Below are positions 3,050 to 61,769 of a stretch of 64,000 nt of DNA, piece by piece; position 1 is the stretch's first letter, and each line of letters begins with the position of its first letter. Position numbers and translations under genes: made by a program. The notes beneath the pieces were generated by a model. It had not been told where the DNA came from. It saw only the letters and a program-made list of their open reading frames with translations, and searched no databases. Source of the DNA: a virus (Duplodnaviria; Caudoviricetes); IMG/VR virus record IMGVR_UViG_3300037484_000235, positions 1-64,000 of that record; one strand, 5' to 3'.

Positions 3050-3400
3050 ATGGCCAACCCAAACATCGAAGAGCAAGTCACAGCCGCAATCAAGTCCCGT
3101 ATCGCCGAGGTGATCGACCCGGCTATCATCCAGGCGCTTGCGGATGCGGAGATTGAACGGTTAATCAAGCCGGGTACCCGCTATGGGGCCCCCGAGCCGT
3201 CTCCCTTGGCGCAGTACGTTCACCGAGAGGTTTCGGAGCGGATTGCCGTGAAGGTCAAGGATGTGATTTCCTCTCCGGAGACTGAGGAGTTGATTTGCAA
3301 GATGGTGGCGGATCATCTTGCAGGTGAGAGTGGGGCTCCGGCCATTCGTGCGTGTGTCGCGGGCATGACTGAGGCATTTCTACGGAATGCAATGCGCTGA
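3050..3400 (+). CDS. hypothetical protein
   Basis: Tiles the operon; TGATG coupling with next gene. Confidence 0.65.
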   Translation: MANPNIEEQVTAAIKSRIAEVIDPAIIQALADAEIERLIKPGTRYGAPEPSPLAQYVHREVSERIAVKVKDVISSPETEELICKMVADHLAGESGAPAIRACVAGMTEAFLRNAMR

Positions 3401-3654
3401 TGTCTTTCAGGATTAAGCTGGATTCGGTGAATGCAACATGCACCACGAGCATCGCGCTGGGTCCGGTGCATACCACGCATCTCAGGGCTACCCCCGAGCA
3501 GCTAGCTGCTGCCTGGAACCGACCGCTAGCGGAGATTCGCAAGCGGATTACGCGCATGGGTCCAGAGCCAACACCCCGCAAGCTGGAGGCGTTCTGCCGG
3601 TGGCTACTGGCGGGCGGCATGCTTCACCCACCCACCGTGGCTTCCAACTATTGA
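3400..3654 (+). CDS. hypothetical protein
   Basis: Translationally coupled to upstream gene. Confidence 0.55.
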   Translation: MSFRIKLDSVNATCTTSIALGPVHTTHLRATPEQLAAAWNRPLAEIRKRITRMGPEPTPRKLEAFCRWLLAGGMLHPPTVASNY

Positions 3655-52419: not shown

Positions 52420-52460
52420 CTCACCTGTATAACGGGCGAGTGGACCGGGATTACACGATT
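52420..52460 (-). promoter_or_regulatory. bipartite promoter-like element
   Basis: AATCGTGTAA-N16-CGTTATACAGGTGAG. Confidence 0.85.
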
Positions 52461-58894: not shown

Positions 58895-58936
58895 CCTCAC
58901 CTAAATAACGGGTCAGCCCCCAGGGATTACACGATT
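58895..58936 (-). promoter_or_regulatory. bipartite promoter-like element
   Basis: AATCGTGTAA-N16-CGTTATTTAGGTGAGG. Confidence 0.85.
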
Positions 58937-60114: not shown

Positions 60115-60347
60115 GGGGCCTCCGGATGAAATGTGAGGTTGCTTGGACCAGCGTAATAGCCACTCTTGTATGCCTGCACCGCGTACCCACGCTCGTAACC
60201 AATGAGTCGGTCCGTAGGCCAGCCGTGCTCTACGGCCCAAGTTCGCGCCGCAACGAGCGTTGGCCAGTAGTAAATGCCGCGATGCGTCTTTAGCGTGTCG
60301 TCCATAGTTCTCCTGAGTGGCGCTACATCACACACGCGGTGAGCCAT
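60111..60347 (-). CDS. hypothetical protein
   Basis: Downstream of the element after a 70-nt leader. Confidence 0.6.
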   Translation of the reverse strand: MAHRVCDVAPLRRTMDDTLKTHRGIYYWPTLVAARTWAVEHGWPTDRLIGYERGYAVQAYKSGYYAGPSNLTFHPEAP

Positions 60348-60417
60348 GATCCCAAGGGTCGCCCTTGCTGGCCCTGGGTAGCGCCGTTCCTAGCGGTTCG
60401 TGTGCGGTGTAGCGTCT

Positions 60418-60458
60418 CTCACCTAGGTAACGGTTGAGCCCACCAGGATTACACGATT
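60418..60458 (-). promoter_or_regulatory. bipartite promoter-like element
   Basis: AATCGTGTAA-N16-CGTTACCTAGGTGAG. Confidence 0.85.
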
Positions 60459-60761: not shown

Positions 60762-60947
60762 TTAGCGTCCAGTCTCGTTGTCTACGACCGTCTCGATGGT
60801 GTCCCCACCTTCGGGAGTCTGCGCCACACGCACCGCCACACACTCTTGGCAGCACCAAATGACCAGACGCCCTTGACCGCTCTTGGTCTCTAGCTCGGGC
60901 CGACGACCCCAGCGGTGGGTCACGCAGAACTGCTTGATCGTGGTCAT
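60762..60947 (-). CDS. hypothetical protein
   Basis: ATG 60947 follows the element; C.TH...CCQEC. Confidence 0.65.
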   Translation of the reverse strand: MTTIKQFCVTHRWGRRPELETKSGQGRLVIWCCQECVAVRVAQTPEGGDTIETVVDNETGR

Positions 60948-60952
60948 GATGT

Positions 60953-60994
60953 CCTCACCTGTATAACGGTCGGGGACCAGAGGATTACATGATT
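60953..60994 (-). promoter_or_regulatory. bipartite promoter-like element
   Basis: AATCATGTAA-N16-CGTTATACAGGTGAGG. Confidence 0.8.
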
Positions 60995-61002
60995 CAGGAC
61001 CA

Positions 61003-61156
61003 AATCCACTCCTACAAGCTGCCCTCGACCCCAGCTCCACCCCCGGCCTAGGATGGGGGCTTCTTTGACTGGTAGGTTAGGTCGTGATTGCAATCACACC
61101 TACTGCGGCTTTTGCATGCCGGAGCCCATTTCGAGAGCAGCTTGTAGAAGTGGATT
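61003..61156 (-). ncRNA. candidate structured non-coding RNA
   Basis: 26-bp terminal inverted repeat (24/26; both mismatches are G-U pairs on -); nested stems; 14-bp palindrome at 61084-61097. Confidence 0.6.
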
Positions 61157-61173
61157 CTTAGCGCTGAGGGACC

Positions 61174-61395
61174 TCATGACTTCCTCAGCTTTGCCAGCTC
61201 GGTTTCCATCCGGTCCCCGAATGCAGCCGCTTCCTTGAAGAGGATTCCAAGATCCCCGGGGATCTGCTCACCCACCTTCTCAAAAGGAACGGATTGCAGT
61301 TGCCGAACGGCTTCTTCAAGATTTCGTCGCATATCGCGCACGATACGTTCCCGTTCGTTTAGAGGCAGACCCTCCCATGTCGTAGAGGTGCTCAT
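61174..61395 (-). CDS. hypothetical protein
   Basis: GAGG upstream. Confidence 0.65.
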   Translation of the reverse strand: MSTSTTWEGLPLNERERIVRDMRRNLEEAVRQLQSVPFEKVGEQIPGDLGILFKEAAAFGDRMETELAKLRKS

Positions 61396-61400
61396 GGCCC

Positions 61401-61706
61401 TCAGGTGTCCTCTCGCATGCCACCACGAAGGCGGTCTGCTACGTCTTCGAGGCCCCGTCGGAGACTCGGTGGCATCTCCGTGCCCTCGATCATCTTGAGC
61501 GCCGACTCACAGATGTTCTTGAAGCGGGCCCGTGCGCTCTTGCCCGTGGACTTGGGCAGCCCGTAGGCCGTTGCCGCATGGCAGTCCGCCAGGTAGAGGG
61601 CGATGCTCTTCCAGTGAGCGGCCTCCTGCTCCGCCGTGGTGACGGCTGCGCTCAGGCGGTCGATGCGCTCGTTGCTGGTCTCAGGCTTGGTGAGATCGTG
61701 GGTCAT
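61401..61706 (-). CDS. hypothetical protein
   Basis: Follows the element; YLADCHAATA. Confidence 0.7.
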   Translation of the reverse strand: MTHDLTKPETSNERIDRLSAAVTTAEQEAAHWKSIALYLADCHAATAYGLPKSTGKSARARFKNICESALKMIEGTEMPPSLRRGLEDVADRLRGGMREDT

Positions 61707-61716
61707 TTGACGGTTC

Positions 61717-61769
61717 CCTCACCTGTATAACGGGTGAGGGCCAGACGATTACACGACGATTACACGATT
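61717..61769 (-). promoter_or_regulatory. bipartite element with a tandem box
   Basis: GATTACACGAC-GATTACACGATT (11-bp period); N16 to CGTTATACAGGTGAGG. Confidence 0.85.

Follow-up and report, generated by a model that had tools for sequence, protein, structure and literature searches.

The window analysed here, a stretch of 64,000 nucleotides from an uncultivated huge phage, is the first 64 kb of an IMG/VR virus record of 252,521 bp, which has a G+C content of 56% and an estimated completeness of about 57%, and whose relatives are other records of 220-250 kb. Around 61 kb the window is occupied by small minus-strand genes that are tightly packed, with overlaps or gaps of a few bases, and that have no Pfam or PHROGs match. 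Two conspicuous gaps stand out among these packed genes, and one of them, at 60948-61173, holds the element described in this report (61003-61156). Read along the minus strand, the locus begins with a promoter box near 61758 (61718-61758, score 43.3), followed by a 101-aa gene (gene101, 61401-61706), a 73-aa ORFan (gene73, 61174-61395), 17 nt that separate the stop of gene73 from the element, the element itself, and directly 3' of it a further promoter box (60954-60994, position-weight score 50.9) that drives a 61-aa gene (gene61, 60762-60947). As the first-pass annotation of this DNA had noted, the element fills the gap between the gene stop at 61174 and a minus-strand promoter box whose scoring window starts at 61002. 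Given the order of the genes between the boxes, the element would be the tail of a two-gene unit that abuts the next promoter, with gene101 as the first gene of that unit and the box at 61718-61758 as the presumed promoter of gene101, gene73 and the element. The product of gene61 has no homologue among 5.8 billion proteins, and no relatives of the flanking proteins of 73, 270 and 61 aa were found in IMG/VR.

The promoter boxes share a consensus composed of aATCGTGTAAT, N14-15, CCGTTAC, N3 and GGTGAGG, with an ATG a few nucleotides further on. A scan of the first 113 kb of the record returned 32 hits that reach the score cut-off, each in the orientation of the gene that follows it; sites at 60418-60458, 58896-58936 and 52420-52460 are among them, and some boxes are duplicated in tandem (51486/51454, and 61766). 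Two relatives of the phage (G002 and G003) lack such a box. The remaining boxes of the 50-62 kb early region abut coding sequence, with nothing like the element there, and genome-wide no second box is preceded by anything comparable. Elsewhere the phage uses canonical hairpin-plus-U terminators, for example before a box near 102.3 kb. A second large non-coding gap lies nearby on the minus strand at 60310-60428, where a promoter-driven structured leader runs without an ATG for about 120 nt.

The element is bounded by two arms, 61003-61028 and 61131-61156, that are complementary at 24 of 26 positions around 102 nt, exactly as first described. With loops of up to 300 nt allowed, no other inverted repeat of the 252,521-bp record is as long, the runner-up reaching 17 bp, and by an analytic estimate about 5e-5 such repeats would be expected by chance per genome. 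The two mismatched positions (pairs 9:146 and 21:134 in minus-strand numbering) read C-A on the plus strand and U-G in a minus-strand RNA, so that the earlier claim that they become wobble pairs on the minus strand only was borne out. The minus-strand RNA is predicted to fold at -87.6 kcal/mol (z -6.9) and the plus-strand RNA at -77.1 kcal/mol (z -5.4), and none of 200 shuffled sequences folds as well as the element. Its G+C content equals the genome mean.

Within the closing helix P1 (5' strand 61131-61156, RNA positions 1-26; 3' strand 61003-61028, RNA positions 129-154; mean pair probability 0.98), the favoured core consists of four helices, P2, P2a, P3 and P4, which include two further minus-only G-U pairs. 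P2 is formed by GGCUCC (61121-61126) and GGAGCU (61033-61038) on the minus strand, with a probability of 0.99 in the window and 0.87 in the homologous locus L114 described below. It is followed by the mini-hairpin P2a (61107-61120, GGC / AUGCAAAA / GCC), which is invariant between the two full homologues, and by the hairpin P3 (61078-61102), which has the apex UUGCAA and is built on a 14-bp palindrome at 61084-61097. P3 has an alternative outer register with 61072-61077; the palindrome, TAGGT at 61078, GTAGGT at 61072 and ACCTAC at 61098-61103, on which the two registers depend, all lie where the first-pass annotation had placed them. A single-stranded linker of 17 nt (61061-61077, ACCUACCAGUCAAAGAA), with one change between the homologues, leads to P4 (61039-61060), a hairpin with a C-rich/G-rich stem (pair probability 0.97) and a 10-nt loop that contains CCUAGG and differs at one position in L114. 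Over P1, P2, P2a, P3 and P4, pair probabilities in the window range from 0.64 to 0.99. An inner stem CUCCGGC/GCCGGGG, proposed earlier, is indeed complementary, yet it is not favoured, as its pair probability in the ensemble is about zero; imposing it on the fold carries a penalty of 14 kcal/mol for the window and 8 kcal/mol for the homologue, and it was rejected on energy. In a near-identical strain (run X5) position 61106, in the unpaired junction between P2a and P3, is changed from C to T, possibly an error, as it is seen in one low-depth contig (290 nt, depth 3.5).

In a search of Rfam, no real family match for the element was obtained at E values up to 10 or at the gathering score. The best hit, to a plant miRNA-precursor model, scores 30.7 bits against a gathering score of 230 and reflects a generic long hairpin; the window as a whole has no hit at the gathering score. 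On the 3' side P1 is followed by UGGUCCUG, with no U tract, and a terminator scan finds no terminator on the minus strand there.

Homologues of the element are few. Megablast and blastn searches of annotated phage records gave no match to it, and scans of IMG/VR for patterns taken from the arm and the core found nothing. An arm-derived 18-mer yielded 46 single hits in 596 Gb of genomes, which is at the chance level of about 35 expected by estimate, and 116 hits in a metagenome collection of 241 M records. When all fetched 18-mer loci were compared by BLAST, the element was found in L114 only, at 91% identity over 157 nt; another locus, L167, proved to be from the same phage as L114. A covariance model (R1) run on three related huge-phage records and on all fetched loci recovered the two known copies only. 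A partial third homologue is represented by a contig of 171 nt (run X2) that aligns to 61005-61078 with 85% identity. Where the relative of gene101 is more distant (amino-acid identities of 73%, 64% and 53%) the genes at the site overlap and the element is absent, and contigs with distant homologues of gene73 or gene101 have neither the gap nor the element. In the 252-kb record itself the element is single-copy and has no sequence similarity to the rest of the genome.

L114 is a syntenic relative, in that its gene251 and gene102 align to gene270 and gene101 of the window at 78% nucleotide identity, and gene101, the syntenic anchor common to both loci, matches its counterpart at 79% of aligned residues (80% by BLASTP). 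Both full copies of the element have the identical syntenic position and orientation after gene101, and the element is co-oriented with the genes in both loci. Of gene73, absent in L114, an ATG and 11 codons are left, and a 20-nt copy of the upstream half of the promoter sits before the element. The exact 20-nt direct repeat (L114:1861-1880 and L114:1465-1484) flanks the gene101 homologue and looks like the scar of a cassette exchange at promoter boxes, as occurs with the PeSL cassettes discussed below. The next gene in L114 starts 45 nt after the element, reached through a degenerate box with no intact one, and differs from that of the window: its product (L114:2-1255, minus strand, protein P0014) exceeds 418 aa, has no Pfam match and consists of an N-terminal domain of about 90 aa followed by short D-A-T/A-T-R-type repeats, of which there are dozens. 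Similarity between L114 and the window begins and ends only a few bases from the stem base, beyond which the flanking sequences are different; at the outer end of the 61003-61028 arm, homology with both L114 and the X2 contig ends after 2-4 nt. The X2 flank at its one covered element end is unrelated to the window and has no promoter box.

Several other features were noted in the record and its relatives. L114:2392-2605 and 3184-3586, directly upstream of the gene270 homologue, match genome positions 1321-1534 and 872-1281, and a 161-aa paralogue of gene270 is found near 1.3 kb. The genes matched lie at about 1 kb in the record, so that some 60 kb separates in one phage what adjoins in the other. 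The second-longest inverted repeat of the genome (106407-106509, plus strand; L173:6407-6509) is situated between two tRNA genes of a tRNA and Ro60 island, and closes a 115-nt RNA-like hairpin (-59.7 kcal/mol, z -7.5) that is a candidate Y-like RNA; the 18 kb at 100001-118000 (L173) contain 40 tRNA genes by Rfam, all on the plus strand. An 864-aa ORF at 163032-165626 (L174) combines a LAGLIDADG endonuclease domain at residues 154-311 with a CGNR zinc finger at its C-terminus; it may represent an intein or the insertion of a homing endonuclease. In a related huge phage (G003:C1:70351-70578; L193:10351-10578) an 18/19 inverted repeat surrounds 190 nt (fold z -4.0). A small ORF of 68 aa, equipped with a strong ribosome-binding site, begins inside this repeat and continues beyond the 3' arm; this is a different kind of repeat-bounded cassette.

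Comparison of the window with L114 indicates that the element is under constraint. The two copies differ at 17 of 154 columns (K about 0.11), and the flanking orthologues have dS values of 0.43 and 0.60 and a dN of 0.13. By this sequence comparison the element appears to evolve 4-5 times more slowly than the silent sites of its neighbours; at the silent rate 50-64 differences would be expected, against at most 17 observed, and a binomial estimate puts the probability of so few far below 1e-6. Lateral exchange of the module after the phages diverged could mimic such constraint. Unpaired columns are more conserved (3 of 52 differ, 94% identity) than paired ones (14 of 102), which implies that the core is constrained in sequence as well as in shape, a pattern that is unusual for a purely structural RNA. 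A small protein was rejected as the explanation, since no reading frame is conserved between the copies: the sole frame open across the element in L114 has a TAA in the window, 8 of 35 residues change in the plus-strand frame, and the differences between window and L114 have no 3-periodicity.

The changes that have occurred are largely compatible with pairing of the minus-strand RNA. The L114 copy folds with a z of -5.35 and forms the same helices, the register of P3 being shifted after the loss of a bulged G (G74). In the window all 51 pairs form on the minus strand (47 Watson-Crick and 4 G-U) versus 47 of 51 on the plus strand, and in L114 the respective counts are 46/50 and 42/50. Wobble sites are accordingly biased, with eight minus-only and one plus-only (one-sided p about 0.02), a ratio that becomes 5:1 (p about 0.1) when the count is limited to helices that follow from DNA symmetry; a C-to-T mutation pressure acting mainly on one strand could be a contributor. 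P1 retains 23 of its 26 minus-strand pairs in L114, and its six changed pairs comprise one compensatory change (2:153, A-U in the window and C-G in L114), two wobble exchanges, including 21:134 (U-G to U-A), and three disruptions. In the interior, C36U, A56G and A72G all yield G-U, with the C36 change in P2 retaining a U-G pair, and the changes fit the minus-strand fold throughout except for one terminal G-U that is lost.

The third sequence adds to this picture for P3. Beyond 61078 the X2 contig carries a different hairpin with the same UUGCAA apex, and pair 61:72 is U-A in the window, U-G in L114 and C-G in X2, while pair 63:70 is A-U, A-U and G-C. Over the three sequences, 3 of the 7 pairs of P3 change on both sides, and 95% of the cells are paired, versus 19-57% with slid partners. 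Among the X2 positions listed, three substitutions, at 61036 (T>G), 61039 (A>T) and 61044 (C>G), would break pairs 34:121, 97:118 and 102:113, respectively, unless their partners have changed as well. Collecting homologues and examining their covariation, as had been proposed at the outset, thus recovered homologues and compensatory pairs, but the covariation did not reach significance, because there are two full homologues and one partial one; 63 of 500 and 228 of 500 shuffles reach the values observed for these two to three sequences.

The element behaves as a discrete module, with statistically exceptional structure, strong conservation, no coding capacity and preserved minus-strand pairing. 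The original view is sustained in so far as this is a discrete, structured, non-coding element whose evolution fits an RNA read from the minus strand, given the constraint relative to silent sites, the wobble bias and some compensatory pairs, and the sequence evidence makes it probable that the element is a structured RNA that has a function and lies outside the described families. With two to three copies known, the comparative support is thin.

The reading that we favour, with a probability of roughly 0.45, is that the element is an RNA module of the minus strand that ends a two-gene operon and in which the stem would serve as a stalk for RNase III-type processing or for stability. Judging from gene orientation, the stretch from 61156 to 61003 would be transcribed as a self-contained non-coding module at the end of the unit that starts from the box near 61758. 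P1 would close a core of about 100 nt, made up of the four helices and conserved single-stranded loops, and would act as the stalk for a double-strand-specific RNase, presumably the RNase III of the host. A point against this reading is that no RNase III gene is present in the 252-kb phage record. RNase III needs roughly two turns of helix, and the uninterrupted 26-bp helix is longer than this, which makes P1 a plausible, predicted substrate. The near-continuous double-stranded RNA of about 20 bp required for an RNase III site is available both in the window (26/26) and in L114 (23/26), if, as the orientation of the genes suggests, the helix lies within a transcript. Cleavage or binding at P1 would separate the upstream mRNA from the transcription unit that comes next, and would also leave or release the core as a discrete RNA protected from exonucleases. 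The sequence-constrained loops of the core would bind a partner, and the core may work in trans. A search for targets within the phage gave 52 complementary 13-mers with at most one mismatch, which is the chance level (about 43 expected by estimate).

An unlikely alternative is that the element is mobile DNA, either MITE-like, with the arms as terminal inverted repeats for a transposase acting in trans, or cassette-like, with the unit shuffled by recombination at promoter boxes, the RNA hairpin being a by-product. It would account for 26-bp terminal inverted repeats on a 154-bp unit without a conserved ORF, for dimensions that match those of the Neisseria Correia elements (26-bp repeats, 153-157 bp; PMC2649163), and for homology that stops a few nucleotides from the stem base in L114 (both ends) and X2 (the one end covered). 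The same locus lacks the element in more distant relatives, the 20-nt duplicated promoter fragment lies right beside it in L114, and lateral spread would give 89% identity without constraint. Recurrence with target-site duplications, by which the first-pass annotation would have recognised a MITE, was looked for and neither was found: the element is single-copy in 252 kb, the arm 18-mer gave one true copy among chance-level single hits, and the flanks (CTAAG / TGGTC in the window, CCCA / TGGTT in L114) contain no direct repeat. The two full copies, moreover, share position and orientation after gene101, and neither a wobble bias nor covariation in P3 would be expected of repeats bound by a transposase. 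A search of the record that covered serine recombinases, tyrosine recombinases and reverse transcriptases found none of them; an inverton or a transposon dependent on a resolvase or tyrosine recombinase was set aside on the same ground.

It is likewise improbable that the element is purely a cis-acting 3' element of the mRNA, i.e. a terminator, an insulator or a block to 3' exonucleases that gives no independent RNA product. Its location between the last gene of the unit and the next promoter box, the great stability of its hairpin, and the existence in T4-like phages of PeSLs, composite cassettes of a stem-loop and an early promoter (PMC4122927), would all suit such a role. P1, however, lacks a U tract after it, the other boxes of the 50-62 kb early region do without such an element, and 52 unpaired positions at 94% identity would be needless for a simple hairpin. 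A terminator would also silence the next gene of L114, which has no intact promoter box. The fact that this gene follows the element without an intact box, together with the absence of a box from the X2 flank, makes read-through with processing likelier than termination; read-through into the downstream gene of L114, as its arrangement suggests, fits an intercistronic RNA and not a terminator.

It is in our estimate quite unlikely that the site functions as DNA, be it as clustered palindromes to which proteins bind, as a cruciform or origin, or as a segment that inverts between the 26-bp repeats upstream of the promoter at 60994. Nested palindromes (GCATGC, the 14-bp palindrome and CCTAGG) do lie within a long inverted repeat directly upstream of the box, and the supposed loops are more conserved than the supposed stems. 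Yet the central palindrome is interrupted in the DNA of L114 (13 of 14 positions) while the pairing of its RNA is kept through a U-G pair, and in X2 the arms of the palindrome are replaced by other bases that are still complementary, which is unlike the evolution of a sequence-specific operator. L114 also keeps the element although the promoter after it is degenerate. A span of 102 bp is short for inversion, and the record contains no recombinase of the resolvase or tyrosine type; the G+C content of the element does not depart from the genome mean and there is no turn in GC skew at 61 kb, the latter having led to the rejection of a replication origin.

More speculative, and doubtful at present, is an extension of the processing model in which the element is a portable ncRNA cassette of huge phages that moves by recombination at its boundaries. 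Cleavage of the stalk would excise the core of about 100 nt from the mRNA tail. Acting in trans, the core would, for example, divert a host defence that senses RNA or is guided by RNA, in the manner of a sponge or decoy, or would scaffold the phage's own factors for RNA repair and quality control (Ro60, a CCA-adding enzyme and tRNAs). The decoy role offered as an example in the first-pass annotation gained no support from the analysis. The invariant palindrome-centred loops (GCAUGC, UUGCAA and CCUAGG) would allow multimerisation or the capture of a partner.

It is very improbable that the element resembles a Y RNA and pairs up with the Ro60 protein (Rsr) of the phage, which would then bind in the long stem. 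Y RNAs measure 80-130 nt and do combine a large internal loop with a long terminal stem (PMC4201824), but the motif proposed for bacterial Ro60 on the 5' strand of that stem, GNCGAAN0-1G (PMC4201824), is absent, the window having CUCGAAAUG and L114 having CUCAAAAUG with its G mutated. ARAGORN finds no tRNA-like domain at 59-63 kb, and in Rfam neither tRNA nor Y-RNA models match, even with E values of up to 10. The element, which resembles nothing else in the genome, lies at 61 kb, about 50 kb from the tRNA and Ro60 island (about 100-118 kb). The analogy to a retron drawn in the first-pass annotation did not survive, as there is no RVT_1 match in 252 kb, with control genomes positive, and in neither of the full homologues does the gene downstream carry a reverse-transcriptase domain of Pfam; an inverted repeat does flank the element, as a1/a2 arms would, and is not diagnostic of a retron when no reverse transcriptase is present.

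The model of a processed RNA module can be set against several known systems. The Correia elements of Neisseria (CREE, or nemis) are repeats whose hairpin in mRNA is bound or cut by RNase III, and they are intergenic and co-transcribed, as the present element would be, with 26-bp inverted repeats around a conserved core and a total length of 153-157 bp (PMC2649163). They differ in being multi-copy (at least 100 per genome), in having a TA target duplication and in being confined to Neisseria, whereas the element is single-copy, is without a duplication and occurs in phages. We take its sequence to be unrelated to the CREE consensus. The T7 R sites, lambda sib and the processing stalks of rRNA are long helices that flank or end a functional unit within a longer transcript, and they share with the element an intercistronic or 3' position and a helix length sufficient for RNase III. 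The T7 and lambda hairpins, in contrast, are about 50-60 nt long and lack a conserved multi-helix core such as that of the element, whose cleavage is a prediction and would depend on an RNase III that is not phage-encoded here.

In the PeSL cassettes of T4-like phages a stem-loop is followed by an early promoter among small variable genes, and neighbours are swapped at the motifs (PMC4122927). The element resembles them in its flanking repeated promoter box, in the 20-nt duplicated box fragment and in the gain or loss of a gene; PeSL stem-loops, however, are small terminators found at many junctions, whereas the element is 154 nt long, unique and highly conserved internally. With Y RNAs of the YrlA type it has in common a long terminal stem, a branched interior and residence in a phage with Ro60, but it has neither the Ro60 motif nor the tRNA-like domain and is not beside rsr.

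In summary, the locus holds a real, unusual and conserved element with no Rfam family or known relative, which is most likely a structured RNA. Much non-coding sequence in huge phages is unexplained, and their RNAs have rarely been characterised; here, as far as the two copies allow the rates to be compared, is an element that appears to be constrained as strongly as the amino-acid-changing sites of its neighbours and that belongs to no Rfam family. While two or three copies are known the scope of either of the following outcomes is modest, and at 154 nt the element is compact enough for direct tests. If it were instead a mobile inverted-repeat cassette, it would extend Correia-type elements to phage genomes. 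If the stalk is indeed an RNase III site that frees a stable core, the element would be a defined ncRNA of a lytic phage matured from the tail of an mRNA, and would represent a candidate trans-acting factor in the early gene region.
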